DNA from: Amoebophrya sp. A120
Lineage: Eukaryota > Protista > Dinoflagellata
Length of the DNA: 64,000 bases
Assembly: GCA_905178155.1 (NCBI GenBank)
Contig: CAJINV010000027.1
Coordinates: 272,656-336,655 of the forward strand
Direction of reading: 5' to 3'
Part shown: positions 1 to 56,155 of the stretch, one piece after another
Layout of the letters: each line of letters begins with the position of its first letter
How positions within the stretch are numbered: position 1 is the first letter of the stretch
Translations under genes and position numbers: made by a program
Notes under the pieces: model-generated
What the model saw: the letters and a program-made list of their open reading frames with translations, nothing else
Told to the model about the DNA's origin: nothing
Database searches by the model: none

Positions 1-1381
1 AGGAAAAGGGTGGGAGCACTAGCAGCGAGGCGCAGGCCGCTAAGGCGACGCCTTCTCTCGCAAAGGAGTGCAGCACGGGGCAGCTGCCAGTGCAACTGAA
101 AGGGCAGAACAACACAAGGGAGGCGGCTAGGGTCGAGCAGAAGCAGGCATCTGTAAACGCATCGGCAAAGCATGCTAAACCTTTTGGCGGGCCCTTAGGG
201 GTAGAGGTGGGTAAGTTCCAGAGACTACTAGATGTTGTCCATCTGATGGAGCCAGCCAGCAGCGGGGACCACCAAGAAACGAAGGGGGACAGGTTGGAGC
301 GCGAACAACTTTCGCCCAGGAGCTGGGGCGAGATGTTGCGAAGAGTTACAGGCAAGAAGAAGGAGGAATTGCGAGTAGAGTACATACTCGGCGTCTAGCT
401 GTGTCAGTGCCTGCGCTACACAGGCGCAGCATTTTGAACCACTGAAACGCTACACACTCAGACACAAAAGCTATGCCAAACCACTCAGACTTTTCTTTTC
501 TTCGTGAGCAGTCACGTCAAAAACTCAGACTTTTCTTTTCTTTACAGACCGTAACGCAAGAACGAAAAAAGAGCAGAAGTGTAATACTTACTAGAGGGCA
601 CTCCAGCCCCTGCCCGTTGCTACATAAGCAGTTGGGTTCGACTCAGCAGCGAGGCCGCATTTGTGTGCGGCGGATGATTCAGTGCCAGCTGGTCTTCGCG
701 TGTTCTGCAACAGAAGCTAAGTGGTGGGTATGAGATGGAACGACGAATCATGCACAGTAATCGGGTATGAAGGGGATTGCCGGTCACCCTTAAGTGGTAA
801 GTTCCGAGACGATTCCGGTTTATGATCCCGGTCCCCCCTCCCACCCTTTGCTTCTGTTGCAGAATGAGTCAAGCTGAGTCACTACGGCTGCCACGCACAA
901 ATTAAGCCTTTAAGTTGTCGCTGTGCCCCAGGTGGGTTGCCAGTCAGCAGTGCCAGACAACTGGTCAATGGTTTGACAACTGTGGCCCGCTCGCTTGCCT
1001 TTTTCGTCCGTGCCGCAGGTAAGGCGCAAACGGTCCAGCCTCCCCTGTCTGGGCGGGGCTGCGGCTTAGGGGAGAGTCTCGCCCCTTCACCCAAAGGGGT
1101 ACGTCGTCTCTTCCGTGAGAACAAAAACGTAGGGCGTAAAATGGGTCGGGTCCTGGATCATTCTGTATGTTGGGCTGTCGCGCTCGGCTTGCTGGCCGGG
1201 CTGTACCGATCAGGTGTGGTGGGTAGCTCCCGACTGGTTGGCACCTTTCTTGGGGCGACTTGCCGTGGTAGCGCTCGGCTTTTGTATGATGAGGTCGCCG
1301 AAAGTGCTTCCTCGCCCACCCCCCGGGGAGGGGATTCTTGACCTGTGGCGCTGGGAGCGGGTGTCCACTACATGATGATGA

Positions 1382-2719: not shown

Positions 2720-5700
2720 ATGCGGGGCATCGGGAGCAGCATGACGAGTATGCTGCGCTATCCAAGAAAAAAACGTTTTTAGTGTAAAGTTGTGATGCGC
2801 AGCATGCAAGATGATTGCGTCTCTCATGCTTGGCATGCCTCGTAGGGTCCATTAAAGGGCGTTTTCACGTACTATCTGCGCATGCCAGGTTTTTACTATC
2901 ATGCCAGACAAATTTGTAATGCTGTTCCTCCAAAAAAGTTACACCTACAATGCTTTTTTCTTGGATATGCGCTGGCGCAACTCCAGCGCGACGCCCCTGC
3001 AGGCCCAACTGAAGGAGGCGCTAAACAACAATAACTGGGGCTGTAGCATATTGTGAGGAAAATGAATCCGCGAGAACCGTATTCGATTTGGCATTTGTGT
3101 TGCTGGATTTTTAATACCTGTCCTCCGTCCGCTGAATCAGCATGAGAGAAAAAATCTTAATCTGAATATGGAAACGAGGTGGATTTTTCCTTGTGATATG
3201 GCAACACGATTCTCTACGACATCGCCAACCAAAGCAACTATTATCCAGCGTAAAAAAACTGTATCCTAAAACTACCTGAGTTGTCATGCATATAATGCAG
3301 CAGGAGTCTTTCTATGCGGCTTTTCCGCCCAGAGATACAACTCTCGTCCAAGTGTGCTGCAGACGATTTTGTTATGCAACATGCTCTCGTCACAAGAAGC
3401 AAAAGATGGGGCTGTACTAGGGAATAAGCAGTGCGTGTGCGCTGTGTATCCAAAGTTGCCCTTTGTGAGTCCAAAAACCTCTGCACAATCAGTCCAGCAC
3501 ATCAAGCCGCATCTTGAATCGGGGTTGTTCTTGGAAAAATTTTTACGTAGGGGTCCGGCGAAAATCCTCCTCTGCACGATATGCGGGCGTTCCTTGGCCA
3601 AAAGACTGCCGGGCATCGTTTGCATTTCCAGCTGGAAAATGCTGAGGGACCCGGAAGGAGGGTTTGCAAATGTCCTCCTCCGCACCGTATGGGGGCTTTC
3701 CTGGGCCCAAAAACTGGGCGACGTTTGGATTTGAGGGGGGAAATGCTTAGCGACTCGGAAGGGGGGTTGCAAAAATGCTCCCCGGCAAGGTATGCGGCCC
3801 CTTTTTGGCCCAAAAAGTGGCCGGCCTTTCGTCTCCAGCTGCAAAGGGTTGGGCACTCGGAAGGGGAGGTTGCGAAAATCGTCCCCCGCACGTTCTGCGG
3901 GCTTCAGGCGGTTTGTACTGCTTTCCGAAACCTTTTGTGTCAAGGTCGAGTGCCCGATCATGAGGCCCGCCCGATGTTATGGTCAGCAATAACCGGCTGT
4001 CCATATTGGCCTGCAAGGCGAAACGCTCACCGGGTGAGCGTTTCGCCTAAGAAGTCCATATTGGGATCTTTCCCACCACAGCACACCGTCGTGCTTCTGG
4101 CTGTTTGTGCTGCCTTTTGAAACCTTTTTTTGCCAAGTTCGAGCGCCCTTTCGTGAGGCCCGCCCGACGCTATGATCGACACAAGCCGATTATCCATATG
4201 GACCCTCAAGGCGAAACGCTCACTCGGTGAGCGTTTCGCCTAAGAAGTCTATATTGGGATCTTTCCCACTACAGCATACCGTCGTGCTTCTGGCTTGTTG
4301 TTGCTGCTTTTTGAAACCTATTCTGCCACTTTCGAGCGCCCTTTCTTGGGGCCCGCCCGACGCTATGGTCGACACAGGCCGACTATCTATATGGGCCTCC
4401 AAGGCGAAACGCTCACCGGGTGAGCGTTTCGCCTAAGAAGTCTATATTCGGATCGTTCCCACTGCAGCATGCCGTCGTGCTTCTGGATATTTGTGCTGCT
4501 TTTTGAAACCTATTCTGCCAAGTTCGAGTGCCCTTTCGTGAGGCCCGCCCGACGCTATGGTCGACACAGGCCGATTATCTATATGGGCCTCCAAGGCGAA
4601 ACGCTCACCGGGTGAGCGTTTCGCCTAAGAAGTCTATATTGGGATCTTTCCCACTGCAGCATACCGTCGTGCTTCTGGGTATTTGTGCTGCTTTTTGAAA
4701 CTTTTTTTTGCCAAGTTCGAGTGCTCTTTCTTGAGGCCCGCCCGATGCTAAGGGCGACACAGGCCGATTATTCATATGGGCCTCCAAGCCGCATCTTGAC
4801 TCTGGGTTGTTCTTGGAAACATTTTTACGCAGGATAACCACCAGCTGCAGCCGATCTTGGAGGCTATCAACCAGGTATTTAGGGGAGAGTGCATAGACAA
4901 AATGATGATCCTGTCAAGTGCATTCTATGGGACGAGCTGCAAGACAAATTATTGACTTCATTTTTCTGTAACGCATGGACAGTAGCTCCGAACTTGTGTT
5001 TCTACTGCATAAAGATGTCAAGAGCAAGAAATTTGTATTGCATGAACACGGGTTGTTCCCACCTTCATATTATTCCCACCTCCTCATCATCAAAAACTCG
5101 TTTTCTCAGGCGTTGGCCGAGCGTGACGGACGACGATGGAGGCGTGTGTGGAAGGCGCTGAACTTATCACAGGAAGAAAGTCCTTCTCCTCCGTGGTATA
5201 CTAAATGCAAAACGGAAAAAATCTTTGTCGTGCTGATTTGTCATCTTCAGAAGCCCCACTTTGCGGGCGGCCCACTTGGCATCGGTCATTTAACGTGCCA
5301 TTCTGGGATTCGTAGCCTTCTCCTGTCGTGGAGAGCTGGCAAATAGGTACTAACCCCTTCGTCCCATGGCATCATGACAAAATGATTTGTGTACACAAAT
5401 TTCGCAGCAGAAGTTTCCGTTTGGGTAGTGGGGGGAGGATTTTTCATTTTGACAAAACTTGATCGAAATCATCTTGAAGCACGGCGAAAATCCGATGTTC
5501 GAGGAGAGCATGAAGGCAGACCAGTATCCTGTGTAAAAACGCCCCTACCCCAGAGTTGTCATGCAAAATGGCATCCCTGAAATGTTTCTTATGCACGACG
5601 CCATGTTGAGGAGCATTTTGTAATGCTATCTGGAAGTTTGTCATGCTGAAATGAGGACAAGGTAGCCAATTTGTCGTGCGGTTGCACTAGCTAAACACGT

Positions 5701-8700
5701 TTACACTACGATGCCAAACTTGTCATGCGTGACTGCCAGAATTTCTGGACTTGTGTTGCAAATTTCCCATCTTGACTTTGTCGTGGGGACGTTTCTACGC
5801 AGGATAACCAGTGGCGAGTAATCTACTTTCTCGACTGGCGCTTACGGAAATGAAAATCCCTTCTCTCCTATCAAATGTAAAAATGTCTGGGTCTGGATGA
5901 AGATTGCAACTTGTGATGCTGTCTCTGCATTATACAAAAATGTGTATTGCATGACCAGCAAGAGGGCTCCAGTTTGTGCTACATGGAGAGGGTATTTCTC
6001 ATGCGGGATAGGCATCAGAAAGCCCGCTAAAAATCTGTGATGCCAGGTTACGCATTACAGGCGTCATGTGTCATGTAAAATCTGCATGACATCCAGACCC
6101 AGACATTTTTACATTTGATATCTCCAAATTCAAAACACGAAGGATTTCTCTTGCTGGACTTGTATATAGCAATCAGCTTTGTGGTCGAGCGCCCGGGGAT
6201 ACTCAGCAAACCCGGTCGCCTCGGTCTGTTTAGGTGCATTGGGCAGTGCAGCTGTTGAGCCCCCTTAACCGGCTCGGTGTCTCCTAGTACTTTCCTTCTG
6301 TCATGCAAGAGAAATAAGCTACTTGTTTTATACGCATTTTTTACAAACCAACACATCTAAACAAATTTCCACTCAGAACAATATGGGGGGGGAGATTTTT
6401 TTTTCCTGCCACAGCGCTACCAGGAGAACCAGAAGGACGTCACTGCGGGGATCCGTGACAAGGCCAAAAAGATTATCCCTGTGTAAAAATGTTGTGGCCC
6501 TAGATTTGTCATGCATATTTCCACGCCGCTGCCCAGGACGCTTCTCATGCTCAGCTGCATGAGAAGCGTTGTGTTCTCGTGGTGTTGTGGAAAAATTTGT
6601 CATGCCTTATACAGGACGAATTGGTGAATTTGTGATGCGACTAGCATAGCCATTCTTGTTACTCAGGATAAAGATCCAGCAGTTGTTGCAGGACCCGGAC
6701 CTGCTGCGAAAGGAGCGGGCGGATGCGCGACAGATCGCGAACAAGCTGCAGCTATGCATTGCAAATATCGATCTGGGTCCGGAATAAAGGTGGAACTTGT
6801 AATGCTGCTCCTACATGCGTGCGAAATCTGTATTGCATGACCAACAAATTATGTCGTAGCCTGTTTCATCTAATCCGGACTGCGTACGAGAACGCGTTCT
6901 GGAAACTTGTCATGCTTGTCTACATTCGGAAGTGTTTTCATCATGCACAGTTCAGCATCACAAATCTCCAGACCCACAAATATTTGCAGTTGATAGCAGC
7001 CGCCCTCGATGTCAGGCGGCGGTGGCGGCGGGATGCCGCAAAGCGGCTTGGCTGCAGGCCCCGGGCCATATCGCAAGAAAAAACTGTTTCACTGTGAACT
7101 TGTGATGCATACAATGGAACACAGAAGTATTTGTCTTGCCACACATGCAAGAAAGTGGATTTTTAGCTGTGTTTTCCCTTAGGAAGCTTGCGTGGCAAAT
7201 TTTTTCTGTCACGTAGAACGAACTTGTCATGCAAAACCTGCAAAATCATCACAGTGAAACAGTTTTTTCGTACGATAGGCCAGGCTACGGAAATAATGCA
7301 GGTTCGAGCTACAACGACGGCTATGGCAACAGTGCGTCGGTGTCGTACGGCTACGGCCCGACGACCACGGGAAGTGGCCTCTACGGCACCACGCAAGAAC
7401 CGATGTCAGGAGGGAGACCAGTGGACCGACCAGACTACAGCTTTCGGGCTTACGACCGCGATTTTTTGGGCGCCGGCCGTCCGGAAACCACGACGTTTCA
7501 GTCTTCCTACGCCGCCTCTGGTGCGCCGCCGTCGCTCCAGGTACCACCACCTAGTTCGGCGTCCCGAGCATTGCGACGCGACGTTCCGGAACCAAATCCA
7601 GCAGAGCCGAGTACTTCTAGCGCGGGTAATTGTCTATGTCTACAAAACATATGCAAAAATTCAGCGGTGTGCGTTTTTGTCATGTGTGTCTTGTGTCAGG
7701 TGTATGTAGTTTGATAAATGTACTAGTCTTTGTCACTACGTCGCTGAAAGAGAGTAAAAATGACACGCATGATTGATAAAAATTTTCAGATTCGCGAAGA
7801 CGGGTTGTCCAGGTTTGCGGGTGTACAGAAACGGAAGCGGATTATCATGTGAGAAATATCATAGTTGCTGGCTTGCATTTTGATGTTGTGCATGCAATTT
7901 TGAATTACAAGTCTTCGCCTTCGCGAGGAAAAGATTTTAATTTCTCATGCAGTTCTACTCCGTCACCAATTTGTTTCTTCAATCTATAGGAAAGAACAAA
8001 CCTTTTGTGCTTGCTATTTTTTGTGCAGCATTTTACAAGCGTCTTTGATGACAAAATGTACTGTCGCACGCTGGCTTCTTTCTCCGCTATCCCAGCCGAT
8101 TGCTGCGCGCGGCAGACGGAAACGTGGAGGACGCGTGCAACAAATTTTTTGCCCAGGCCAACAACGAGCCCGAGCTCGAGGCGCCACGAAGTGCCCAGGA
8201 CCAGCGGGATTCGGGGCCAGCCTCTTCCGACGAAGACGAGGAATTGGACGAGATGCCGAGCGGTAACGACTCGTCAGAGCCGGACCATAGTCCGGAGGTC
8301 GGTCCGCGTCATTACGCACAGCGAAAATGTCTGGGTCTGCGAAAAATGGAGTTTGTCATGCTATGTTTCGATCACGCAAAATGTTGTATTGCATGAGCAG
8401 GGGCAAAAAATCTGTGAAACTAGAGCATACTAGCTTGACGAAAATCGCGGGTCATCATGTAAAATCTGCATGACAAACTCCTCCAATTTTCCAGACGCAG
8501 ACATATTTGCACTGCATTGTGGTCTCCAACCCCAGATGTCAGGACAAGTAATGCCACCGCAGCATACCAATGCTTCGCAACCAGCGACGTGGGACCAGCA
8601 ACAGCGGGCACAGCAAGCGGCCAATATGCATTGCAAATACAGCTAGGTCTGGAAATAGACTGCGGATTTGTGTCATGTAGCTCTTGGACCACAAAAATGG

Positions 8701-11700
8701 AAAAAGCAACACGGGTCTTGCAACGACTTCTCCAAGCCTTTTTGCGTAGCAACAAGTAGGCAGCTTTTGGCGGTCTTGCAACACAGATTTTTGTGTGCGC
8801 GTCCCGAGCAAGCATCGCAAATTCGCTTCTTGCCTGACCCAGAGATGTTTGCAATGAATAGGCAGCGTCCGGCAGCAGCCGCAGGTACCGATGGAGCAGC
8901 GGCATATGAAATGCAAATATGTCTGGGTCTGGGAGTTTCTAAACTTGTGATGCTGTGTCTGGATTCCAAGAAAATTTGTATTGCATGACCAGCAAGAGGA
9001 CTCCAGTTTGTGCTACGCGGACGAGAGGACATTTCTCATGCGGTGCTGGCATCACAAAGCCCTCGCAAAATCTGTGATGCTAGAGGATCCATCACAGACA
9101 TCACGGGTCATTCAAAATATGCATGACAAACCTGGCAATCTTCGAGACCCAGACATGTTTGCATTTGATACGGCAGCAGCCAGCGCAACAGGGGGCGAGC
9201 CGCCAGTTTTCCCAGCCGTCAGGGTCGCAGCAGTACGGTACCGCGCTGGATGCACAAACTGGTATCAAATGTAAAAATGTCTGGTTCTGGAAGGATGCAA
9301 CTTGTAATGCTATTTTTGGATTCTAAAAAAATCTGTGTTGCATGACAGGCAATAGGAGTCCAGTCTTTGCCACGTGGAGAGGGCATTTCTCATGCAGGAT
9401 ATGCATCAAGACGCACTCAGAAAATCTGTGATGCTAGGGCATAGATCACAGCCGTCATGGGTCATGTCAGACGTGCATGACAAACAAGGTCATGGCGCGG
9501 GGACAGAGTCCCCGCGGCTGCGACCTTGCGGCTAAGAAGGGCCACCCGCGGTGGCTTTTCTTGCCCATTATGCGGCAGGTTTTTTTTTTGCGACAACACG
9601 GGGTGGCTTGGCGCTCGTGGTGCCGGCGCCCCCCTGGAACAGTGCGCCTTTTTCTGCGCCCCTGGGCGGGGCGCCCCCCCCCAAAGGACTACCCACGACC
9701 AACCGAGGGCGCGGCCGTCCGGGAGGTTGTTCTCCCGAACCAGGGCGCGCGGGCCTGTTTCTGCGCCCCTGGGCGGGGCGCCCCCCCCAAAGGACTACCC
9801 AAGACCAACCGAGGGCGCGGCCAGCCATACCAGGGCGCGTGGACCTGTTTCTGCGCCCCTGGGCGGGGCGCCCCCCCCCCAAAGGACTACCCACGACCAA
9901 CCGAGGGCGCGGCCGTCCTGGAGGCTGTTCTCCCGAACCAGGGCGCGCGGGCCTGTTTCTGCGCCCCTGGGCGGGGCGCCCCCCCCAAAGGACTACCCAA
10001 GACCAACCGAGGGCGCGGCCTTACCAGGGCTCGTGGACCTGTTTCTGCGCCCCTGGGCGGGGCGCCCCCCCCAAAGGACTACCCACGACCAACCGAGGGC
10101 GCGGCCCTCCTGGAGCCTGTTCTCCCGAACCAGGGTGGGCGCGCGGACCTGTTTCTGCGCCCCTGGGCGGGGCGCCCCCCCCAAAGGACTACCCACGACC
10201 AACCGAGGGCGCGGCCTTCCTGGAGCCTGTTCTCCCGAACCAGGGTGGGCGCGCGGACCTGTTTCTGCGCCCCTGGGCGGGGCGCCCCCCCCAAAGGACT
10301 ACCCACCCACGACCATGCGAGGGGGGGCGCGGCCACCTTCCTGGAGCCTGTTTTCCCGAACCAGGGCGCACAGAACTGTTTCTGCGCCCCTGGGCGGGGC
10401 GCCCCCCCAACAGGACTACCCACGACCAAGTGAGGGGGGGCGCGGCCTTCCTGGGGGCTGTTAGTTCGCTTCGCACTCCCGAATCAGGCCGCGCGGACCT
10501 GTTTCTGCGCCCCTGGGCGGGGTGCCCCCCCCAATGAATAGGCAGCCAACCTTTGGCCGCCGGGGTCGGGCCTGACTCTTGAAAAGTGGCCCCCGGGGCC
10601 GGGTGTTCCTTTTCCGAAGTCAGGCGGGGGGCATATTTTGGGTTGTGCAGGAGGTTTTTCTTTTTGCCGGTTCGGGTCGTGTTTGATACCCCGGAACAGG
10701 GGTCGGAACATACTCCGCAACACACCCCAGAACACACCCCGAAACACACCTCAGACCATGCCCCGAAAGCCACTCTCCGAAAGTCAGGTCCGGGGTCGGA
10801 CCCGACTCCCTAAAAGTGACCTCCGGGGCCGGGTGTCACTTTTCCGGAGTCAGGTGTGGGGTATGTTTTGGGGGGTGCAGGACGTTTCTGCCGATTCAGG
10901 TCGTGATTGATACCCCGGAACATGGGTCGGAACATACCCCCGAACACCCCCCGAAAACTCATTTTTGGGCAGTTGCTGCAGTTCAAATAGTAATCTTCCA
11001 ATCTTCCAGACCCACACGCTTTTACACTTGATAACTGGTACGTATAGCGGATTCTCGCAGTCGCAGCAGCAAGCTCAGAGTCGTGCACCCTACAGCCAGT
11101 ACGGGCAGAATTTGGGTACTACCAATCCGCTGGCACAGAATCTCTCCATCGGCGGCTCGCAGGTTATCAAAATGAAAAGCGCAGCCCCGTCTCCGGACTC
11201 GTTTCAAATGTTTGCGCTGCAAAGTTTTCAAGTGGGCGGGCTTTGTCGTGTATGCTCGGAATAAAATTCCAGTTGCTACAATATGCAAGGCTTCCGGAAT
11301 ATTATCATTTAGGAAAATTTGCAATGCAAATGTGTCCACGTGCTTCGGTCGCGAGGGCAGTTTTTATTCTGATACAGGTGCAGCAAAATCAGCTGCCATA
11401 CAACTCGACGCAATCGGCCACACTACACCCCTCTGGTATGCAAGTACCCATGGGCCAATCGGGTCCGCAACAAGGCACTGGTATCGACTGCAAATATGTC
11501 TCGGTCTGGGTAAGAGCACGCGAACTTGTCATGCTGGGTATATAGCATGACAAAGCAATGTTTTATAGAGCATGAACGCATCACAAATCTTTCGGCTGTT
11601 GTTGCAAGGTGAGTCGTGTTTTGCATGACAAACTCCCTCTTCGAGCATGACAGAAAAAATGGTCACTCCTATTCAGGCATCACAAATCTTCTTATGCTTC

Positions 11701-13711
11701 AATTTTCGCATAACATATCCAGACCCAGACATATTTGCAATGCAGGACTGGATTCGCACGACAATCGCCACCGACGTTGGTGCAGCACCAGACCTTTATG
11801 CATTACAAAAATGTCGAGCTAGTACAACTTGCATGAAAATATCTTTGGAAAGAAAATTGCAATCTGTGATGCAAATTTCGCTCGGGAAAGCAGATCTGTC
11901 ATGCATAGCTGCAATTTATACGGAGGCTCCGATACTCTTGTACGGCATAACCTTGCCACAGCAACCAAACGTCGGCTCGCAAGTTTTCGGCGGACAAAAC
12001 GTCCCAACACCGCAGCAGCAGTTCCTGATGCAGCTCCCGGCGGGTTCGCAACTGGCCCACCAGCATGTTCCGCAAACGTCCGCAAATTACCTTGGGCACG
12101 ACCCAACTGCCAGGCAGCAGCAGGTGCTGTTAAACTCGACACCGGCCGCCCAAAGTTCTGTGCAACAGAAAATGTCGGGGGGAACTACAGTGCTGATACC
12201 CAGTAGCGCGCAACAATTTGCTCCTATCGCAGGTAGCGGGCCGCAAGTTCCTCTGCAAGCCATCATGCAGACCACGCCACCGCTCCAGCAAGCACAGACG
12301 ATGGAGTCGCAGGCGATGCCGACGCAGCCGATGCAGCTGCGCGTACTACCCCAGACAGTGCCATCCATGGAATCGGTATCGACACGAAACGTGGTGCTGC
12401 AACGGCAGGTGCTAGTACCCGCACAGCCGCAACAGCAAACGCTGTTGCAGCAGCAGCCGGGCGACGCGACAACGATGGCGCAGCCGGCAGTGCGGGTCGG
12501 GCAGCACCTACAACCCGCGATGCCAACATTGCAGTACAGACCCGTCCTTTTACCGCAGCAGCTTGTGGCCTCCCAAATAATGCAACCACAAGCGTTGCAG
12601 CAGCGAGCCATCCTAGCCCCGCAGCAGATGGTACCATATTCTTCAGAAAAGTACACCCAACATGATACCAGGGAAAAAAAATGAGCCTAGTCATGCTTCC
12701 TTCTGTGTCACAAAAATATTCTGTAGCATGTTCATGACAAACCTAGTGGGCATCTTTTTCATGCTGGAGCACATCACATCATTCATCACGCATGACAGGA
12801 GCTTACCGCAGTTGTAGATCAGCAGCACAAATTTTTTCGTGCGAGAAAAAAAACAGCAACACAAATTGATTTTTCCCGGTTGTAGTGTGGGTGTAGTTTT
12901 CTGAAGGATGTACCTGTACGACCACAAATGGTCATGGCGCCGCAGCAAGTAGCGATCCAAAACCCGCAGCGGCAATCGTTTGTCCCGCCTGCAGGTCTAC
13001 CAATGAACTCGCAGCTGCAAAGCAGACCACCCATGGCACAGTACGGACAGGCAGCAGGAGGTGTACAAGCGAACCTCGGCGTTGCTGCAAGCCCGAGAGG
13101 AGTACTTCGCCCAGCCGCGGGAGAGGGAAACCAGATCAGCACGCCTCGGGAACCGGGCGGCCGGGGGGTATTTGAGTCGTTGCAATGTCTGCTTGTGATG
13201 CATATGATACTTTACTCACCGCATGAATGTCCTGTCCCGTTCCTGTATGTGCTTTCGTGCATGACAAAGAACTTCCAAATTTGCATACCATGCATGCTTC
13301 CGAATCATGCATTACAAAGTTAAAGTTATTGATTTTACAAATCAGCATTACAACTACATTCCAGGCAGCGACCAACCCCTTCGCTAAGTACGACGTGCGG
13401 CGTTTTTTGAATGGTATCCCGGGTAAAAGTGTCGCCAGCCCGTATCTGTCATGCAAATTTGCATGCCGAAAATGCAGTTCCTCATGCGCAGCTACATGAG
13501 CTGCAACTTCTAATTGTGTTTTGGAATTTGTCATGCCAGAATAAGCAGGAGAAGATCGGTTTGTGATGCGACTGAGCTAGCTAAATACGATTACGCTGCG
13601 AGCCCCACCTTGTCATGCGCAACAGCCAAAACTTGTTCATTTGTGTAGCAAATTCCCAATCCTGACTACGGGGTGGAGACGCTTTTACACAGGATGAACG
13701 GCACCCCATAG
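2720..13711 (+). CDS. Epsin-like protein (N-terminal ENTH domain, UBA-like segment, Q/P-rich tail with NPF), about 20 introns
   Basis: Joining exons after removing element+TSD gives MRGIGSSMTSMLRWRNSSATPLQAQLKEALNNNNWGCSNTILYDIANQSNYQLQPILEAINQALAERDGRRWRRVWKALNLIEIILKHGENPMFEESMKADQWRVIYFLDWRYQENQKDVTAGIRDKAKKIQQLLQDPDLLRKERADARQ, matching the ENTH consensus (WG.S, W+HV.KAL.L, +R+KA+.+..LL.D...LR.ER). Later exons include RLLRAADGNVEDACNKFF (UBA-like) and TNPF; stop TAG at 13709-13711. Junction at ~7843-8100 unresolved. Confidence 0.88.
2759..2967. mobile_element. Introner (tatccaagaaaaaa TIR)
   Basis: Right TIR ttttttcttggata; perfect TSD tgcgc; restores MLR|WRN. Confidence 0.9.
3049..3198. 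mobile_element. Short introner
   Basis: tattgtgaggaaaa / ttttccttgtgata; TSD tagca/tggca; restores ENTH WGCS|NTIL. Confidence 0.8.
3242..4836. mobile_element. Introner family B carrying a 1.2-kb satellite
   Basis: tatccagcgtaaaaa / tttttacgcaggata; TSD actat/accac. Confidence 0.8.
3551..4790. repeat. Composite tandem repeat (~110-bp units, then about four ~192-bp units)
   Basis: aaggcgaaacgctcac(c/t)cggtgagcgtttcgcc hairpin recurs at ~4015, 4208, 4401 and 4593. Confidence 0.9.
5165..5454. mobile_element. Introner (C-like, degenerate)
   Basis: TSD gaact/aaact; restores KALN|LIEIIL. Confidence 0.75.
5525..5806. mobile_element. Introner family B
   Basis: tatcctgtgtaaaaacgcccc / ggggacgtttctacgcaggata; perfect TSD accag. 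Confidence 0.92.
5843..6413. mobile_element. Introner (C-like) hosting a nested introner
   Basis: Perfect TSD gcgct; restores DWR|YQENQ. Confidence 0.8.
5869..6120. mobile_element. Nested introner family A
   Basis: Perfect 29-bp TIR tatcaaatgtaaaaatgtctgggtctgga; perfect TSD tctcc. Confidence 0.93.
6474..6670. mobile_element. Introner (B-like, shortened)
   Basis: tatcc / ggata ends; perfect TSD aagat. Confidence 0.85.
6753..6995. mobile_element. Introner family A
   Basis: Degenerate A-type TIR; perfect TSD gcagc. Confidence 0.88.
7069..7277. mobile_element. Introner (tatcgcaagaaaaaactgtttcactgtga TIR)
   Basis: Right TIR tcacagtgaaacagttttttcgtacgata; perfect TSD ggcca. Confidence 0.9.
8625..8860. 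mobile_element. Introner family A
   Basis: Degenerate TIR; TSD gccaa/ggcag. Confidence 0.8.
8905..9170. mobile_element. Introner family A
   Basis: A-type TIR; perfect TSD cggca. Confidence 0.92.
9263..11033. mobile_element. Introner family A carrying a 1.5-kb GC-rich insert
   Basis: A-type TIRs; perfect TSD actgg; restores AQTG|TYSG. Confidence 0.9.
9648..10535. repeat. GC-rich tandem repeat (variable unit up to ~120 bp)
   Basis: cctgtttctgcgcccctgggcggggcgcccccccaaaggactaccc repeated about 9 times. Confidence 0.92.
11165..11374. mobile_element. Introner with TSD caggt (GT-AG compatible)
   Basis: tatcaaaatgaaaa / ttttattctgata; perfect TSD caggt. Confidence 0.88.
11482..11746. mobile_element. 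Introner family A
   Basis: A-type TIRs; perfect TSD actgg. Confidence 0.87.
11797..11949. mobile_element. Short degenerate introner
   Basis: tatgc / gcata ends; perfect TSD acctt. Confidence 0.8.
12637..12910. mobile_element. Introner (tattcttcagaaaagtacaccc TIR)
   Basis: Right TIR gggtgtagttttctgaaggatg; TSD tacca/tacct. Confidence 0.85.
13415..13696. mobile_element. Introner family B
   Basis: B-type TIRs; TSD aatgg/aacgg; lies before the last 3 codons of the epsin-like gene. Confidence 0.85.
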
Positions 13712-14403
13712 TCAAGGAGGTGCACAGGACCGTGTTTTTTTCAAGTACATCACAGCAGCTTTGCGGAAAGCCAAGTTCTTTCCCGTTTGGCCTGCGAGTG
13801 CATCAGGGACTCGTTGTTTTCACCAGTCTTTACCGTTTCGAAAAATTTAGACAGGAATCTTCGAAAAAAATCAAGCAATATAATTCCAATGTTATGACAA
13901 TGAAGGAGGTACAACTTGGGCAAAAAAATTATCATCTGCAAAAAGATACAGTAGTTGCTCTATGCTACACATGTGGTTACAACATGGCAGGGGATTTTGA
14001 TGTCAGAAGCAGGTAGTTTATTTGCTGTACAATTCGTGACCCGAAAGAAGTCACGTCTGTCCTGCTAGCGTTTTCGTGCCTTTACAAATTCGGCTTCATC
14101 TCAAGAACGACCAGCGGAAATAAAAATCCAGCGGGAGAACGCGCGCCCTGAATCATGTCTCCCGCGAGGACACATATTTTTCTAGATTTCAAAAGGTACG
14201 GCAGATATCTTGTGCTTACCATGTTCTTCTTGCTTTCCCCTCGGAATGCTGGTATCCGACGTTGAAAAAAAGCTTTCTCTTCCTTCAAAACGTTCCTTTT
14301 TCGCGTTACCACCTTGTTTTTGTGGGCAATAGTGTAAATCGTTTTGGTTTTTATGATCAGAAAACCACTGTACAAGATGGCTCCCTTTTCGCACGGCCTG
14401 CGC

Positions 14404-17400
14404 ATGGCGCGTACATTTCTAATGCGGCTTTGCTGCTTATGCAAATTCGCCATCGCCGATTTTGACTTCGAAAGCCTGTTTGGCAACGTGGGACTTGAAT
14501 CGTGGGATAAATATGCAGCCAGCGACGCGAATGGCGACGACGCGAATGATCTCGCGGAAAAGTTGGAAGAATTCTCCAATGGTAGCTACGAGTACGAGAC
14601 CGTGAGATTAAGCTGGGACGGCATTTTGTTAGTCGACTGGAAAACACTCGCACACACAAGAAACGCACGCCGGCCCCACTTGCCTCGCTCGTTCTAGTGG
14701 TTCAATTTTCCCAATTCGAGCAAGCAAGCGACGCAGGGTCGCGTGCTCCGTTCGCATTCTGTTTTGAGATGCACGAAGAAGAATCAGCGCACTCTGCCCA
14801 TGAGTTCCACGAACGGCGCGCGGCGTGGCGTGGGCTCGTGAAATTTCTGGGACGAATCTCAGCCACAGTGATGGCGGCAATATTAGTTCTCAGCCCCAGG
14901 AGGCTCAGTCGTGTGGGCCATATCCAAAAAGGGTCGCTCGAAACCTAATTTAGCTTCTGCCGCTCGGGCTTGCAGAAGGAAATAGGATAAGCGACAGCAG
15001 CGCCCTGCGGTTTTGCACCTAGTAAAATGCCGGGAAACTGGCGGGGCCTTTTCTGTAAGATCTAAGACACGGCGGACCGTTTTGTCGGTCTTGCACTTTA
15101 AAACAGGCCACGTTGGCTTTCAGCCCCATCGCCTCCGCTATCCCGGTAACCCTAGCGAGGCCGCACTGACTTGGGAGAACACCACCGGGGGAATAGAATA
15201 AGAAAATAGCTATCGGCCAACATTCCGGTCCGCTGGGTTTTTCGTCGGGTTGTGGTATTTCAGGGGGGGAAAATCAGGCGCCGACTGGGGCTGTCGTGTT
15301 GCGTGTGTGCGAAGTCGCTTTCCATAGCCGCCAGATGCCGGGCGACGTACCGAATAGGGAACAGTTAGGCGACTACGACTTTGACGGCGACGGGGCTTTT
15401 GGGCTCTCAGAGATGAAGATCATGCACGACCTGAAGCTCGGCGACGCCAACGGAGTTGGTGAAGGCGTGGCGAAGCTCCTGTGCCCCAGCGATTGTGACG
15501 TGTCGAAGTACGACCTGGACGAGAACAACCACTATTCGCACACTGAGCTGAAGTTTCTTGCGAGGTCAATAAAAGACCAGGGCGGTGAGCTCCCAGACTG
15601 GAAGGGGTTTGTTGGACTTTGAACACACCTGCCACACTGAGTGCCTGAAGCTTCTAGCTGGCGAGATGCCTCGCAATCCCCCAGCGCTTTAACCCCTCAG
15701 CAGACAGGGCGAAAGCCTCGGGCTGCGTTGCATCCATCCCGTGGCGCCTCAGCGTTCAAGGCGCACCACCGCCATCATGCCATCAAGCTGGGCTCTGGAG
15801 GTACCTCAGACCCGCCATTCAGGTCTCGAGCCATTTCCGACCTCCCTCCACGTCGTCGCTGATGGATTTGATTCGGGACCGAGGTCCTGGGTAGAGGTTT
15901 TACTCAGGGCGGCGGCTCTGGATAAAGTACCTGCTCAGGATCTGTATACCCTGAAAGCAAGGACCCAGAGTGGGGCAGCCCACTCCGCGACGGCTACAGA
16001 TGGGAAGGTAGACCCAGATGACCGCCTGCCCATTCTGGGAAAGGTTTTTATTCAGGGCGGCGGTCCTGGATAAAGTTTGCACCCAGGGCGGCAGTCCTGC
16101 GGCTCAGGTCGCGAACAGGATCTGAACCCGTCTTCAATTCATCTGTCATTATTTGCATTTGTGGAACAGAGGACGGCTCGGGACCTCATAGAAGCTTCAG
16201 GCCTGCGTGGGGGGAGGGTTTCGATCGCATGACCGAAAAACTTTGACAAAGACGCGGCCAAGGTTGTGTATCCCGACCAGCTAACCAAAATCGACAGCGG
16301 CAAAGACTTTATAGACATCTTCGACACCGATACCGACGGCTGGTATTCCTTCCACGAGTTGAAGGCGATGCAACAATTTCCTAAGCACGGTCCGCAGCAC
16401 CTGAAAGAGTACTACGACATGGACGGCGACGGGGAACTTAGTCACTACGAAGTCAGGCTCGCAATGAGCAGGGCCGCGCATGTAACGGTCGGCGCCATCT
16501 ACAACGAGCAGGGCGGCGACGTTCATGCGGAACAACGTTCCGACTTGGAGCTGTTTACGAAGATTTCATCCTCGGGTGAAGACCACAAACTCGAACCAGA
16601 AGAGGCACGACTGGCGCTTTGGCACGAAGGTGAGAAATATGATCGGGCCGAGTACAACCATGAGCAGAACGAGCAGCTCGCTGAGCACGTAAAAGCGGGA
16701 GGACACAACTTAGCCTACCACGACATCATGAGTGACACGAATCACGGCCACCACAACCTCGCCCATGCAAAGTGGCAAAAAGTACACGACGTACTGCAAA
16801 TAAACGGCTACCTGTCGGAGAAGGCGTTCGAGCTGCGGGACCTGGATGGCGACAAGAAGATTAGCAGCAACGAGCTCAATATGATCGTGAGAAAAAACTG
16901 TCTCAGTCTCAACTTGTAATGCGCAACTTGTTCCTTCAGACAGTTTTTTGTCGTGCTCGACATGCAATCAAAGGAAACTCCGTACGTGTTTTCTCTTGCA
17001 TGTAAACAGTCACAGATTTTGCGTGTGATGCTAAGGAAATTTGTGTATCTGAAACTGCAAAGGTCTGAGACAGAGAACGTGTTTTCGTACGATACCCAAA
17101 GTCGCCGGCTTGCTGGGAAACGATCTACAAACGAAAGGCAAGATAGCCGTCGACAAAGCAAAGGTTTTGCTCCAGAGCATGAGCGCGACGAGCGACAACC
17201 CTTTGAAGCAGTGTACGGACGAAACAGGGTTCTGCGACTTCAACGGCGACGGATCTTTGACGGCTGAAGAAATCAAGCTTGCGAAACTCTGGGACGACAG
17301 TCCGCCCACTGCAAAAGTGAGTACGATTCTGGGAGATATCTTCCCCGACGCCACGGATTCGGAGATCAAAGGAGCTGACTTTGACGGTGACGGTGTATGG

Positions 17401-20400
17401 AATGTAAACAGGTCTGGGTCTGGAAAGGAGCTGTGATGCTGAATGGTCAGGATTGAGTCCGCCTTTAAATGCAGTGAAGCATGACAAATTATTTATAGAA
17501 CGCTTTCTCATGCGTGGTGCGCATTACAAACTGCGACAGTGTTGCATCCGTGAGGTACTTCTGTTGCTTATGCAATACCAATTTTTCTGGAATGCGGGAC
17601 ACGCAATACCAGATTTTGCACATTTCCAGACCCAGACGTATTTGCAGCGCATACGGTATCCTGTTGAACAACGTACCCCCTCTACACTTGCCACACAGAT
17701 TTGCTTGTCCCGCACAATTCTCATGCCGCTACCCACGGAAGCCGTTTTCCCCATGGGAGCCGTTTTCTGGTGGTGTTTGGAAATTTGTCTTGCGTTGTGA
17801 TCAGGATCAGAACGTCGGATTGTGATGCGGATGAACTAACTAGACACGACAGTCTTGCATGGCCAAGCTCGTCATACGTGAGCGCCAAAACCTGTCGATG
17901 TTTGTGATGTCCAGCCGATTTACAATCTTAACAAGGGGGGCCCGGACGTGTGTTTTCACAGGATGAACGGGCACCTGTCACAGAAAGAAATCGCGCTCCT
18001 GACTTTTGTATCAAAAAGACAAGCGCCCCACCACAGGATGTGGAACACATATATACACCCGACCTATAGACCATAACATAGTAGCCTGCGTCACAAATCG
18101 TTTTTTTCCACCCGTTATTCTGTCTTTTTCCTTTTCTCAATGTAATTCATTTTTTGTACGTTCTCTGTGCTGTATAGTTGTCTTGTCTCCAGAACACATA
18201 CTCCGGGGTGTGGGAACGCCCAGGGACACTTCGCCGGGGAACATTTCCCACATTGTATGCATCAGCATGACAAATTTTTAGCCCAGAGCAGCGACACTCT
18301 ACGTTGCACGATATCTGTCATGTCCTGGCGCGTTAGAGTCTGAACGAAAATGCGTCGCGTTCCCTCGATGCTACACAAAATCAATACAAACTGGCCGGTC
18401 GTCTGGTGGTGGGGCACTCTTTTCATTTTCATACTTTGAGCAGCAAGACCCTGACGATTTTGACCCGGACTCAGCAGCCAATAAGAAGTATCTTGACTAA
18501 AAATGTCCCAACCGCAGAGTTGCCATGCGGATTCTCAGTTGCAGGAAGATTTGTAATGCGCATCCCCACGTTGGGAATTCTTTGGCGTGATTTTTGATGT
18601 TGTAATAACACGATAGGCCGACGGCTCTGCGATCCACGGCTGTGCTTGCTAGCTTGCACTACACTACAGAGGAAAAATTGTCATGCGTAACTCCCAAAAC
18701 TTGATGGGTTGCGTAAACCACGTACCCATCTTGACTCTCGGGTGAGGACGTTTTTAGACGGGATAAAGAGTTGCTCCCAGCTATCCTCGGTAGCGATCAT
18801 CGCTTGGACTCTTACAAAATGCTGGATGGCGATGACAAGAAGCTCAGTCTGGAGGAGCTGCGGCTCGCTGTAAAACATCCGGAGACGAAGGATCTGCTGA
18901 CGGCGCAGGATCTTCACACGGTTGCCGACGCGATGTTTCCATCCGTTATCAAACTGAAAAGTGCCGGCCCCCAGAAAATACCGCGCGACGATTTTGTCTT
19001 GTGACGTTTCTCCATGAGGCTTTTTCGTCTTGCACAGAGATAATGCGAGTCGGCATACCATGACAGACGATAGTGCCTGTACTCTGCCTCTGTGCAAGGC
19101 AGAAGAACTTCGCTATTCTGGGTTGAAAACTAGAGTTGCTGCTACACAGATGGGTGTAAATATGTTTCTACAGAGTGAAGAACAGTGTTTGTATTGCAAA
19201 AGAACCAGAAGTTGCGCAATACAAACACTTTCCCGGTCTGTGGCGGGTGGAGCAATTTTCAGTTTGATAATAAGGTCCGATAACGCACACATGCTCGACT
19301 TTAATGGAGACGGAAAACTCGAGAACAGTGAATTGCTATCCAAAAAGAACATAAAAAGTGCATTGTTGGTGTACCTCTGTCTTGCAGAATCTATGCATCT
19401 TACGGCCAGGCTACTTGCAGATAAGTAAATGGCTGCACGTACCAGAGATGCATGGTAATTTTTTTGTATACATGCAGCTCTAATTTGTCGTGGTGCCGTC
19501 CCAAAAAGGTGTGCCCAAATGTGGAGGTTCTTTTCTTGGATAATTACTGGCGGCTGGGCAATTGGGGGCGCTGGTGAACACCAACGGTAAAGCGGTTATC
19601 CAAGGAAAAAAGGGTTACAGTATACACATTTGTCGGAGTTTCTGCATGACAAAGAAAACCTGTGATGCGCAGACTATAAGGGAAAACACGATTGAAATGA
19701 GGCTGGCAAGCGTTTTCTGCATGACAAATGTTACCTGTCTTGCTTGTTTCGCAACACAGTGCGTAACTGTAACACTTTTTTCTTCGCATACCGGTAGACC
19801 TCGAGTTATTGCAGGACCAGCTGGACGCGCTTCCGTCGGGTTTGCGGTATTGCAAGGAAAACGCCCACCTCCCCATTTTGAAAACGTATCTTCTGAAAAT
19901 TTGTGATGCGGATTTCGACCACAAACCCTGTCTGTCTTGCGAGAAGGCAAATCCAGGCTCTCTGCTACGCTATGCAGGCGATTTGTAATGCTGTAAGGAC
20001 TACAGGACAGCCGTCTACCATGCTAGGCGCCTACACCAAAGGGCCCCTATCTCGGCTGGCGATCTGCGTGCAGTCCTCTACTGCAAGACAAATCTGATTC
20101 GTGTACGCAAATCCAGCATCACAGATTTCCTTTTCGATATAGGGAGGGGGGATTTTTCCTTTTGATTTGCGGCAAACTGCGCTGACGGGAATATCCTGCG
20201 ACGGCGACCAAAACTTCGACCTGTGGGAGCTCGAGCTTTACGTAAAGGCGGGCGGATTGACGACGGAAAAGGTGCACGATTCGGCAATCCGTGGCATCTT
20301 GGATCAGGCCAGCGCTACAACCATCTCCAAAGAAGAGTTCGACAAAATCAACTTTGTAACCACGGGCCCGAAAGAAATCACCGCAGAGCTTCCGATGGAG

Positions 20401-23400
20401 TGGCCCGACTTTATCGTGAAGAAAAATCTCCCCCGCTTTATTGCTCTGAAAGGAAATTATCTCTCATGCTGGAATTCTGTACGCAGGTCAGTATTGCATT
20501 GCTAGAAGGCAAGAAGGAGATTCACCCTTGGCCGTTTTGGCAGGCAATTTGTAATGCTATTCCGGGCAATGTAGTGCCCGCCTGCCAAGCGGAATACGCA
20601 ACGCGTTTCCGTGCCAGACAGCAATACAGTTCGAACCTCCCCTCATCTCCCAGCACCACGGCAACTTGGTTTATTGCGATCACAAATCGTGCTTTCTACG
20701 AATTTCGTTTCAGTGTGGGCTGGGGACGACAGGTTTTTTCGCTTCGACACACTTCCTATCAACTGTAAAAATGTCTGGGTCTGGAAGATTCTGACACTTG
20801 TCATGCACGTTTTGCACTAGCCATGATGTCTGTAATGCATACCCTAGCAATACAGATTTTTTGAGGGCTTCTTGATGCGTATTCCGCATGACAAATGCCT
20901 TCTCAGCGTAGCAAAAATTGCATTCCCTTTTCTACTCATGCAATACAGATTTTTTTGGAGGCCAAACGCAGCATCACAAGTTCTATTCTTTCCAGACCCA
21001 GACATTTTTGCATTTGATACTTCCTGCGGAAACTCGACTCGGGGACGGGAAACGATGATATCAAATGCAAATATGTCTGGGTCTGGAAGATTACAGACTT
21101 GGCATGCGCATTTTGCATGATCCATGATGTCTGTGACGCATGCCGTAGGATCGCAGATTCTGTGAGGGCTTATTGATACCTATACCGCATGAGAAATGCC
21201 CTTCCGCATGGCAAAAACGGAACTCCTCTTGCTCCCCACACTAAGCAGATTTTTGTAGAATCCAAAGGCAGCAGCATCACAAGTTGCAACCTTCCAGACC
21301 CAGACATATTTGCACTCGATAGATGACGGCAAGGTGCAACTGTCGGAGCTCCAAGACTACCTGGTGGACTTGAACGGCGTTCCCCAGCCTGGCATGTCGC
21401 TGGGCTCCGTAGCAAACGCGATCCCGTATACGCCGGCTTCGCCTCTGGCTTTAGTTGGCCTGGCGGCGGGCGGCGGGGCTGCTTTCAGCAGAGTATTTTC
21501 AAGTAAACCGAGCCGGAAGCCGATCCCACTCTCGCCGAAAGCGCGGAGGGAGCGCGCGGCGCAACAAGCGGAGGCCGAGGCCACAGAAAGCGACGATGTT
21601 GGCAATGATGCTGGTACAACTCCAGCAGGAGACGCCCTCCAGTACCGATACGGCCATCTGCCGCCACCAACAGTAGTCGGACCAGCGCCCGCACCCTGGG
21701 TACCGCCGAGACCCGTGCCCTACGTCAAGCCCCCCGTGCCGGTGAAACAGACCCCCGCTCCGTCCCCCGAGAACCATCGAAAAGGCGGTCGCAGCCGGTC
21801 GATATTCAATATCCTGGGTAAAAACGTTCCCACCTTAGGGTCAAGAGGGGGATTTGGCTACACAAACCAACGAGCCTTGTGTGTTGCGCATGACAAGTTC
21901 CGGCCCGTGGTGCACCACCCGTGTTTAGCTAGTGCAGCTGCATGAGAAATGCATCAGCTCAAGCTCCTTCTACTGTGACAAAGGCTAACCCCAAAAAACC
22001 CCTACAACATGCCTGTCATGCCGCTCCACATGAGACACGTTACCGTTGCAGTTGTACAGATTTGCATTCTACCTTCCCTGCGTGACAGCCATCTGCGGCC
22101 GTTTGCAAAGGGGGAGGCAAAGTGTGCCGCACTTCTGTTTAGCATGACAACTCTAGGGTGGGGACGTTTTTACTCACGATATATAAGGAAGGGACGGACA
22201 TCCACACTGGAAATAGGTTGATAGCCTGCTCAGATGTTACAGTAACAGTCTTCAATGCTACAATAAAGTCTTAGTTTTGTCCTGCATGATCACCAGCATG
22301 AGTACTAACATGCAGAGACTTGCGCTTTTCGCAATACAAATTTCGTCGAATGCTGCTTCGGTTCGGCGTTCCAGACGTTGTCATGCGCCTTTCTGTGATG
22401 GCGGACCAGAGCACGCAGTTTTTGCATCACAAATTGCAGGGAATTGTATGGATGTACTTTTCTCGTGGGTAGCGAACAACTCAGCACAGACGGCACAGAA
22501 GCAGAAGAGACGATCAGCCACGAGAGAGACGCTCGCGGGCAGCGAGCAACTCAGCACCGGAGAAGAAGAGACGGCGCAGACGTAGCGGGAATACCAAGTT
22601 TAGCTTCCTCGAGGACGGAGCCGTGGAACCAGCCCGGGTATTCCAGGAACCCACCCTCGCGTCCCGTGCGCCGTTCGGCGAAGAGGCACGGCATGGGGAC
22701 CACGGCACGGAACACGCCGTTTCCACCGCTGGCAACGAACCTAGGGAGGGCGCCGACGCGAACGGGCTCAACGTCTATCCAGTGCAAATTTTAGTGGATC
22801 TGGAAAAATGGTACGTGGATTGCTTGTCTTGTATTCCCGTATTAAATCTGTGTTGCATGATGACTAAGAAAAGCGCCGCGGCCGTTTGTGTCATATGAAA
22901 ATACAGTTTGTAATGCGCACTATGCATGAAAAAACACTTGAAATATTCGTCATGCCTGGCTTCACTAGGAAGGCTATTCAATTATGCCCACGCAGAATCA
23001 CCAGTTTCCAGACCCAGACATATTTGCAAGGCATACCGCCGCAGACGAGCAGACGGAGGACGGCAGTACGGTGGAAGGAAGTACGGCGGATGGGAGTACG
23101 GTGGAACCGGACGGGCCCAACGATGGCGCAGACGAGCAGCCGGTGGAGGGAGGTACGGTGGAGCCGGACGGGCGTAATGACGGCGCAGACGAGCAGCCGG
23201 TGGAGGGAGGTACGGTGGAACCGGACGGGCGTAATGACGGCGCAGACGAGCAGCCGGTGGAGGGCGGTACGGTGGAACCGGACGGACGCATCGACAGCGC
23301 TGGCGAGCAGACGGTGGAAGGAAGTACGGTGGAACCGGACGACGGCCCAAGCGAGCAGACGGTGGAAGGAAGTACGTTGGAGCCGGACGGGCCCCGCGAC

Positions 23401-23646
23401 GGTGCAAACGAGCGAGCGGTGGAAGGAACTTCGGTGGAGCCGGAACGCAGCAATCTGCGTGGCGGGCTAGCGCAGGGAGCGAGGAAACGAAACGACCACG
23501 TGCGGCAAACGGAGCCATCAGTGGGTGGACTGCAGCTGGTGAGCATCCCGTGGAGCAACGCGTACTACGAGTGGTTAGTGGTTGGTGTGCTCTTGCTACC
23601 GTTCCTCTACTGGCTCCGGGCTGTGTGGTGGCGGCGCCGGCAGTAG
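14404..23646 (+). CDS. Large multi-EF-hand type I membrane/surface protein with 19-aa stalk repeat, about 15 introns
   Basis: Signal-like N-terminus (MARTFLMRLCCLCKFAIA). Many DxDGDG-type loops across exons (DFDGDGAFGLSE, DLDENNHYSHTE, DTDTDGWYSFHE, DMDGDGELSHYE, DLDGDKKISSNE, DFNGDGSLTAEE, DFDGDGHLSQKE, DFNGDGKLENSE). C-terminal TM helix plus basic tail (WLVVGVLLLPFLYWLRAVWWRRRQ*). Some junctions unresolved; it could be two genes. Confidence 0.72.
16880..17094. mobile_element. Introner related to 7069-7277
   Basis: TSD ctcaa/cccaa; restores NEL|KVAG. Confidence 0.72.
17396..17653. mobile_element. Introner family A
   Basis: A-type TIRs; left TSD cggtg, right TSD split by the next element. 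Confidence 0.85.
17657..17965. mobile_element. Introner family B inserted in the TSD of the previous element
   Basis: tatcctgttgaaca / tgttttcacaggatg; TSD tacgg/aacgg. Confidence 0.82.
18489..18765. mobile_element. Introner family B
   Basis: B-type TIRs; TSD agaag/aagag. Confidence 0.82.
18947..19269. mobile_element. Introner (tatcaaactgaaaa TIR)
   Basis: Perfect 14-bp TIR; the TSD-like tccgt/tccga is offset by 6 nt on the right. Confidence 0.75.
19337..19542. mobile_element. Introner
   Basis: tatccaaaaagaac / gttcttttcttggata; TSD attgc/attac. Confidence 0.83.
19597..19790. mobile_element. Introner
   Basis: aaaaaagggttacag / ctgtaacactttttt subterminal IR; TSD gcggt/ccggt. Confidence 0.83.
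19848..20167. mobile_element. Introner family C (opposite orientation to 1670-1988)
   Basis: Perfect TSD tgcgg; its right part is the reverse complement of the left part of 1670-1988. Confidence 0.86.
20412..20749. mobile_element. Introner (C-like)
   Basis: tatcgtgaagaaaaa / ttttttcgcttcgaca; TSD gactt/cactt. Confidence 0.8.
20757..21019. mobile_element. Introner family A
   Basis: A-type TIRs; perfect TSD cttcc. Confidence 0.92.
21059..21321. mobile_element. Introner family A
   Basis: A-type TIRs; perfect TSD gatga. Confidence 0.93.
21810..22181. mobile_element. Introner family B
   Basis: B-type TIRs; TSD ttcaa/tataa. Confidence 0.83.
22776..23035. mobile_element. Introner family A
   Basis: A-type TIRs; TSD acgtc/ccgcc. 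Confidence 0.8.
23041..23445 (+). repeat. Coding minisatellite, 57-bp unit (ADEQPVEGGTVEPDGRNDG)
   Basis: Unit starts at 23128, 23185 and 23242, with degenerate copies on either side. Confidence 0.9.
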
Positions 23647-44865: not shown

Positions 44866-45256
44866 TTCTATTTTTTTCTTTCTTTCTTGTCTTGTCCTGG
44901 CATGATTCAAATTCTCGTTTTGGCCCCCCGGTCCGAGATTGTCTTTCTTCTTTCTCATCATCATGTAGCTCCCTCAAACGATAAAGATAAAGATGGAGAA
45001 GTAGAGAAAAGACAACGATAAAGATGATGAAGTTGTTTTCTATTTTTTTCAATTAATTACAATTCAAATAGTATTATTCCTATTCGAATTCTCTTCATAT
45101 CGAAATTATTTTTGTTCTTTGAGTTTCATCTTTATCTTTTGAGAAAGAATGACCTGATGATGAAAACAAAGAAGAATGGATAATCTCGGACCGGGGTTAT
45201 GATAAATTTGAGTCATGCCCCGACATGATCACAAAGAAAGAACCAAATAAATAGAA
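44866..45256. repeat. Degenerate long inverted repeat (foldback-like)
   Basis: catgattcaaatt...ccccggtccgagattgtc...tcatcatca (44901-44963) is mirrored by tgatgatga...ataatctcggaccgggg...aatttgagtcatg (45155-45217). Confidence 0.7.
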
Positions 45257-46953: not shown

Positions 46954-46964
46954 AATTCCCCCCA
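46954..46964 (-). other. Polypurine tract
   Basis: Minus strand tggggggaatt directly before the 3' LTR. Confidence 0.75.
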
Positions 46965-50925: not shown

Positions 50926-50929
50926 CTAG

Positions 50930-55104: not shown

Positions 55105-55107
55105 CTT

Positions 55108-56151: not shown

Positions 56152-56155
56152 AAAG

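Follow-up and report, generated by a model that had tools for sequence, protein, structure and literature searches.

Overlapping introner-derived introns in an EF-hand gene of Amoebophrya sp. A120 and the probable order of their removal

The 64,000-nucleotide stretch of Amoebophrya sp. A120 analysed here (the window; contig CAJINV010000027.1, positions 272,656 to 336,655) carries a gene for a multi-EF-hand protein, P0001, in which two introner elements stand back to back. Positions are counted from the first letter of the window, and all features described lie on the forward strand. The family A introner at 17396..17653 (258 nt, TATG...CATA) and the family B introner at 17657..17965 (309 nt, TATC...GATG, left end complete) are absent from spliced contigs as a single compound intervening sequence of 577 nt (17393..17969, GT...CG by the cut rule given below). 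This compound intron is real and expressed. We propose that it is probably a twin intron in which A sits inside B, the two introns overlap by 2 bases, and both are exactly removed, A first and then B.

The compound intron and its two elements

Of eight runs compared with the window, X1-X4 yielded spliced contigs and X7 unspliced ones, whereas the raw RNA runs X8, X9 and X10 contributed 0 reads and do not bear on splicing. Analysis of the contigs revealed the joint 17389|17967 in all four spliced runs, X1-X4, with no mismatch, 4 ambiguous letters and a skip of 577 bases, which is exactly the sum of both elements plus 5 bases for each (258+5+309+5). None of the five possible cuts at this joint is GT-AG. 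The upstream exon (17097..17392, contig piece 17097-17389 with 4 ambiguous letters, the end at 17392 being placed by the cut rule) closes with D-F-D-G-D of the EF-hand loop, after which comes the first base of a Gly codon, and the downstream exon (17970..18007, contig piece 17967-18004, ends by the cut rule) continues with the G-G of this Gly, followed by H-L-S-Q-K-E-I. The spliced contigs read DFDGDGHLSQKEI at the loop, with His instead of Asp, and the preceding Gly codon is GGG, followed by CAC. The initial annotation, made from the sequence alone, had claimed that removal of both elements rebuilds the EF-hand loop, and the contigs, matching P0001, bear this out.

The part of the host gene that was checked (15353..22775) covers residues 100-990 of P0001 and contains 12 intervening sequences. 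Combined, the 12 joints give a stop-free frame of 891 residues identical to residues 100-990 of P0001, with the first joint (15610|16236) read from a loose contig end; therefore, the public gene model already removes the 577-base stretch. P0001 is a 1032-residue multi-EF-hand protein of the Amoebophrya sp. A120 annotation, in which the Pfam families PF13405, PF00036, PF13499 and PF13202 score above the cut-off. Its best PF13499 stretch (residues 445-505) contains the junction loop (residues 493-504, D-x-D-x-D-G...E). In the search for relatives, 349 pattern matches to the upstream exon in metagenome contigs yielded 0 confirmed cases, the matches of the protein searches were confined to annotated proteins of the genome itself (1/677 and 1/1908 candidates), and tblastn of P0001 against the 156 loci listed from another assembly gave nothing.

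The window holds dozens of elements of 150-430 nt, whose terminal inverted repeats (TIRs) start with TAT and which are flanked by 5-nt duplications; the end motif TAT...ATA is common to all introner families. As the initial annotation had it, A and B have the boundaries given above and belong to different families, each aligning better within its own type. The best-strand alignment scores of A are 150-232 against the 10 other A-type copies of the window and 80-120 against seven B-type copies, and those of B are 140-216 against other B-type copies (six in the window) and 47-92 against A-type copies, with maxima of 40-105 for shuffled sequences. The TIRs of A are complementary at 22/28 positions, with an end duplex of -36.5 kcal/mol compared to -27.1 kcal/mol for B, and the first 20 positions pair in register at 15/20 in each element. 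Against an end profile whose training excluded them, the four ends all score 10.4-13.8. A carries at its left end the A120 introner motif of TAT, 7 nt and at least three A, and the left end of B has two of the three A. Insertion occurs in both orientations, the best alignment being forward or reverse depending on the copy. Judged from these traits (TIRs, fixed-length duplication, both orientations), A and B would be non-autonomous TIR DNA transposons resembling miniature inverted-repeat transposable elements. Family A was also sampled in one other assembly, possibly of another strain, where only well-conserved ends were taken (192 ends across at least 156 loci, L001-L156); among the matches listed there, to which all statements on that assembly below refer, the 5-nt duplication is perfect (5/5) in 22/25 complete A copies.

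Cut register and routes of removal

Each simple intron skips its element length plus 5 bases. Where the two copies of a duplication differ, the joint gives the number of left-copy bases kept, which we call the register. Among the RNA joints of 10800-22950, register 4 fits 14/14 simple introns (13 of them independent, the right end of intron 13166 having been placed by the rule), compared to 12/14 each for registers 3 and 5; the count leaves out intron 15611, which has no clear repeats, and the three compounds of this gene. Joint 18945|19274 permits register 4 only. A test of 17 further elements (2759-11033) against annotated proteins gave 12 matches, all of which permit register 4, and the other five comprise three elements upstream of the annotated start, one nested element and one with discordant annotation. 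Within family A, copy 8313 permits 4 or 5 and copy 8625 permits 2-4, therefore leaving register 4 only for this family, and copy 22776 needs at least 4, as read from a contig piece end. As shown for the neighbours of the compound, an introner intron of any family includes, besides its element, 1 base upstream of the left repeat and 4 bases downstream of the right one, whatever letters stand there. The first two letters of these introns are GT in five, TT in four, AT in three and CT in one (n=13), and the last two are AG in 0/13. T at +2 and A at -7 are present in 13/13, because they belong to the repeat motif itself. Intron 15611-16235 of the same gene, 625 nt long with GT...CG ends, has decayed, offset terminal repeats together with short internal repeats.

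At this fixed register, A is an intron of 17395-17657 (GTATGG...CGGT) and B is a pre-mRNA intron of 17656-17969 (GTATCC...AACG), and therefore the two introns overlap by 2 bases, 17656-17657. The spacer between the elements is 3 bases (cgg, the junction region reading cgg|TATC), and the exon between them, described in the initial annotation as essentially absent, amounts to minus 2 bases by the cut rule. Simulated removal of A and then B connects 17392 with 17970, and the resulting GGG-CAC is what the contigs read, whereas B and then A joins 17394|17972 and gives GGT-CAC, with the same protein and a sequence that differs from the contigs. Joining the left end of A to the right end of B skips 575 bases with a frameshift. 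If 17393-17969 is taken out by a single cut, the product is identical to that of A-then-B; among the routes simulated at register 4, only A-then-B and the outer single cut yield the contig sequence. The initial annotation had taken the His or Asp codon as the marker of which duplication copy is kept; this codon does not tell the route, as both orders give His and no rule-conform route produces the Asp version. What is informative instead is the Gly codon just before it, whose third base gives GGG if A leaves first and GGT if B does. Since this distinguishing base is silent, the order can be read from the mRNA without a change in the protein. Removal of B first, giving GGT and the same protein, is possible in principle, at most as a minority route.

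Folding of the pre-mRNA predicts two separate hairpins with strong own-end pairing in each, the pairing probabilities being mostly 0.9-1.0 for the A stem, ~0.67 for the B stem and 0.0 for cross stems between A and B. We propose that the pre-mRNA folds in this way, and that cutting of A (17395-17657) would join a 2-base stub to the B body, rebuilding the same B donor at 17393. In the resulting RNA, the B stem is predicted at 0.92-0.99, with 0.71 for its first pair, and cutting of B would then join 17392 to 17970. More generally, we tentatively suggest that A120 removes its introners with a ruler that takes its measure from the terminal hairpin (1 base before, 4 bases after, no AG). With such a ruler, a transposon that inserts within the first bases of another would in each case build a working twin intron through its own duplication; a silent base would tell the routes apart, and the mRNA at the present site would show the 5'-first order.

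Insertion history and alternative explanations

In the history that we prefer, B would have inserted first, in the EF-hand loop, and A would then have landed in the B intron, directly behind its second base. The 5-base duplication of A would have copied three flanking bases and the first two bases of B, so that the left end of B is complete again behind A. The duplication of B would be gacgg (17389..17393) and aacgg (17966..17970), equal at 4/5 positions and fitting the 4-letter ambiguity of the RNA joint, and that of A would be cggtg (17391..17395) and cggta (17654..17658), also equal at 4/5, the last two bases of the right copy being the first two of B. The putative stub of the original B left end, TG from TA at 17394..17395, coincides with bases 4-5 of the left A duplication. 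This history takes two silent transitions, both at spliced-out positions. The reverse history, stated in the initial annotation as an insertion of B at the right border of A, reads the duplications as tacgg/aacgg and cggtg/cgggc, and takes three transversions, one of them changing Asp to His. The sequences tacgg (17652-17656) and aacgg are indeed present and 4/5 identical, two mismatches occur in 5/32 duplications of the window, and splicing of A and then B would still fit the mRNA if A had come first. Nevertheless, two further elements of the window are nested in the left end of their hosts, at 7 and 26 bases, and we consider it improbable that A inserted first; the order in the initial annotation is probably to be reversed. 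A rough estimate before any transition bias, which rests on the ~16 mismatches per 100 duplication positions in the window (26/160; one mismatch in 11/32 elements and two in 5/32), favours the nested history by about 15 to 1, making it the more likely on sequence grounds.

The observed mRNA would equally be produced if the 577 bases left as one intron, cut once from the GT at 17393 to the 3' site of B at 17969, with both hairpins looped out of a three-way junction that is closed by pairing between the exons. The outer end reads GTGTAT, and its first three positions can pair with the B end (two G-U, one U-A). The exon flanks pair at -11.4 kcal/mol, and in the minimum-energy fold this pairing closes the two hairpins, so that the outer ends could be drawn together; intron 15611-16235, GT...CG with a decayed left repeat, indicates that a bare GT donor may work. 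However, the outer end has a profile score of -12.4 compared to a median of 15.5 for true ends, its stem with the B end has a probability of 0.0, and an intact hairpin offers a better donor, GTATGG at 17395, at a distance of 2 bases. The exon-exon pairing, stronger than in 14/15 control introns, was rejected as a special feature, one of the 15 controls pairing more strongly still. In addition, joint 20407|21019 of the same transcript skips 611 bases, whereas a single rule-conform cut would skip 613, so that two excisions, separated by 2 bases, seem to be required at that compound. A single cut is in our judgement a rather unlikely account, albeit the main rival of the twin intron. Other points weigh with it against ordered removal from a nested pair. 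No intermediate lacking A and retaining B was seen among the joints listed from the contigs; the splice evidence consists of assembled contigs, from which rare forms drop out, so that only the majority form is known. The runs X1-X4 all carry one sample label, S1, and their RNA nature is a guess. No empty-site or single-element allele was found in metagenome contigs, protein searches or other-assembly loci, and the nested history is a preference rather than proof because mismatches in duplications are common in the window.

B might also be removed first, with A then cut off-register (at most three left-duplication bases kept) to give GGG as well. The pre-mRNA contains a complete B donor and hairpin, and the simulation of this route matches the contigs at an A register of 2 or 3, that is, only at 3 or below; registers this low are ruled out by the family A copies 8313 and 22776 and by two other introns, which renders this route quite improbable. 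The initial annotation had offered recursive splicing or joint removal by ends of different families. The sequential part stands as the best reading, whereas joint removal by the left end of A and the right end of B, helped by the shared TAT...ATA, is refuted as the main route and may occur as a rare error. Although 13/20 terminal positions of these ends pair in register (10-19/20 in true introns) and their 30-mers form an off-register duplex of -24.9 kcal/mol, close to the -27.1 of B's own ends and as such a further point against the twin intron, such removal would skip 575 bases and shift the frame under the cut rule, the contigs skip 577, and the stem probability is 0.0; we regard it as highly improbable. 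Least credible of all is an assembly artefact or a chance juxtaposition without function. The best-matching DNA runs may themselves be the source of the assembly; against this, runs X5 and X6 contain all sampled words of 16200-19000, a contig of X7 runs unspliced over 17135-17679 and crosses the A/B border, and independent spliced contigs skip the exact sum of both elements.

Other compounds, known systems and side observations

Compounds make up 3/12 intervening sequences of the P0001 gene, the 577-base one included, and one more lies in a neighbouring gene. The second (20411..21023) consists of an element at 20412-20749 and a family A element at 20757-21019, 7 bases apart; its joint 20407|21019, spliced in X2-X4, skips 611 = 338+5+263+5, and the rule leaves a 2-base exon, 20754-20755. 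In the third (21802..22475; joint 21801|22476, skip 674), also in the P0001 transcript, a B element at 21810-22181 sits 7 bases inside the left end of its host at 21803-22471. In the fourth (5842..6417), an A element at 5869-6120 sits 26 bases inside its host at 5843-6413, the annotated junction of protein P0002 skipping 576. All three nested cases of the window, with the present one, fall within the first 30 bases of the host. In the other assembly, a neighbour starts within 27 bases of 0/192 family A ends, the first neighbour lies at 28-83 bases for 58 of the 192, and six of the 192 are possibly nested, none of them less than 50 bases from the host end. If neighbours were uniformly spaced, the 0-27 gap would have a binomial probability of 6e-11, the ends being not fully independent, and at a much lower threshold the zone holds 11 weak matches, none with a convincing partner. 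With three further compounds in the window against 0/192 elsewhere, the compound arrangement is uncommon, not unique, and the gap suggests a minimum exon size or an exclusion of insertion that compounds escape.

Recursive splicing through zero-length exons makes use of AG|GT ratchet points. There, as proposed here, the first excision creates the second donor with no exon between, whereas the 577-base compound has no AG|GT site (cgg|TATC) and its units are separate mobile elements of ~300 nt. Fungal stwintrons include a [D2,3] type and an alternatively spliced [D1,2]/[A2,3] type, according to the passages considered of Fekete et al. (2017, PMC5587772) and PMC9024468. Like the [D2,3] type, the compound would have an outer GT donor whose bases 2 and 3 are separated by an internal intron; in silico, under the cut rule, removal of the internal intron rebuilds this donor. 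Similar to the alternatively spliced type as described in these passages, it has two overlapping introns, and whichever of them left first, the protein would in principle be the same; loss of either would shift the intron position. By contrast, stwintrons comprise canonical U2 GT-AG introns with a branch point, whereas the constituents here are TIR transposons with GT donors and 3' ends of ...GT and ...CG, the 2-base overlap being made automatically by target-site duplication. The routes here differ by a silent base, and in the stwintron type the U2 spliceosome catalyses two consecutive reactions with a demonstrated intermediate. We do not count the compound as a stwintron, because its constituents lack AG acceptors and its intermediate is unproven.

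In Micromonas, one introner element may be inserted in or merged with another, as proposed for the pair here, the introns there being near-canonical; the passage of Verhelst et al. (2013, PMC3879977) on nested and merged introners makes no mention of overlapping splice sites or order. Euglenid nonconventional introns, as summarised in a section of a review (PMC11282704), have ends defined by a terminal stem, which keeps a set spacing from the non-canonical borders, together with duplication-like repeats. They differ in lineage, motif and register, with CAG/CTG at +4..6/-8..-6 compared to TAT/ATA at +2..4/-7..-5 here. For A120 itself, the portions consulted of Farhat et al. (2021, PMC7789003) describe introner elements of many families as non-canonical introns with TIRs of 8-20 nt, direct repeats of 3-5 nt and ends of TAT, 7 nt and an A-run, and treat as variable or unknown where splicing occurs with respect to the hairpin. 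They report U2, U4, U5 and U6 and no U1, with tens of thousands of non-GT-AG introns spliced without detected U1 snRNA, and leave the mechanism open. The present elements share the inverted repeats, the direct repeats (4/5), the end motif, the repeated family and the removal without GT-AG, and their host protein belongs to the A120 annotation; what differs is the fixed register and the proposed overlapping, ordered removal. The words 'nested' and 'recursive' are absent from the searched text and supplement legends of that paper, a search with Figures 3 and S19-S25 outside it. The literature searched, with subscription journals, figures and bioRxiv supplements outside its scope, yielded no paper describing the removal of Amoebophrya introners as overlapping or ordered, and the searched portions of PMC12130899, PMC11282704, PMC9860276, PMC8469720, PMC12787238 and preprint 10.1101/2020.10.14.339549 contain no such case.

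The fixed register resolves introner borders that were left ambiguous in PMC7789003, the donors becoming N-T. GGG versus GGT at the compound provides a natural reporter of removal order with two predicted intermediates, and register and reporter together make the unexplained splicing mechanism testable with existing data. The compound would also illustrate the one-step origin of a stwintron-like structure from a DNA transposon. If the hairpin ruler were true, splice order and register could be read genome-wide from existing RNA-seq, and it would offer a route to intron sliding by 2 bases.

Some further observations concern the same elements and their surroundings. The B element at 17657 and another at 13415 share an identical G-type terminus, and the five bases that flank it are also the same in both (17958-17970 and 13689-13701). 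This shared right end was considered as a family B trait and rejected, since 4/55 B-type ends of the other assembly end in G and 0 of these have the same next four bases; it may be due to chance or gene conversion. Downstream of element 22776-23035, the C-terminus annotated for P0001 departs from the element-plus-5 junction. It falls within a 57-nt tandem array (22776-23444), where the annotation may be off. Two introners enlarged by internal tandem arrays keep the element-plus-5 junction in P0002: a family A introner at 9263-11033 (1771 nt) with internal tandem arrays of 86-198 nt units, and a family B introner at 3242-4836 (1595 nt) with an internal array of a 193-nt unit. In 44000-64000, introner ends are scarce, tandem arrays of 141 nt and 106 nt occupy 58197-60080, and the blocks 45892/55108 and 57054/62299 are duplicated; these large repeats are possibly larger mobile elements.

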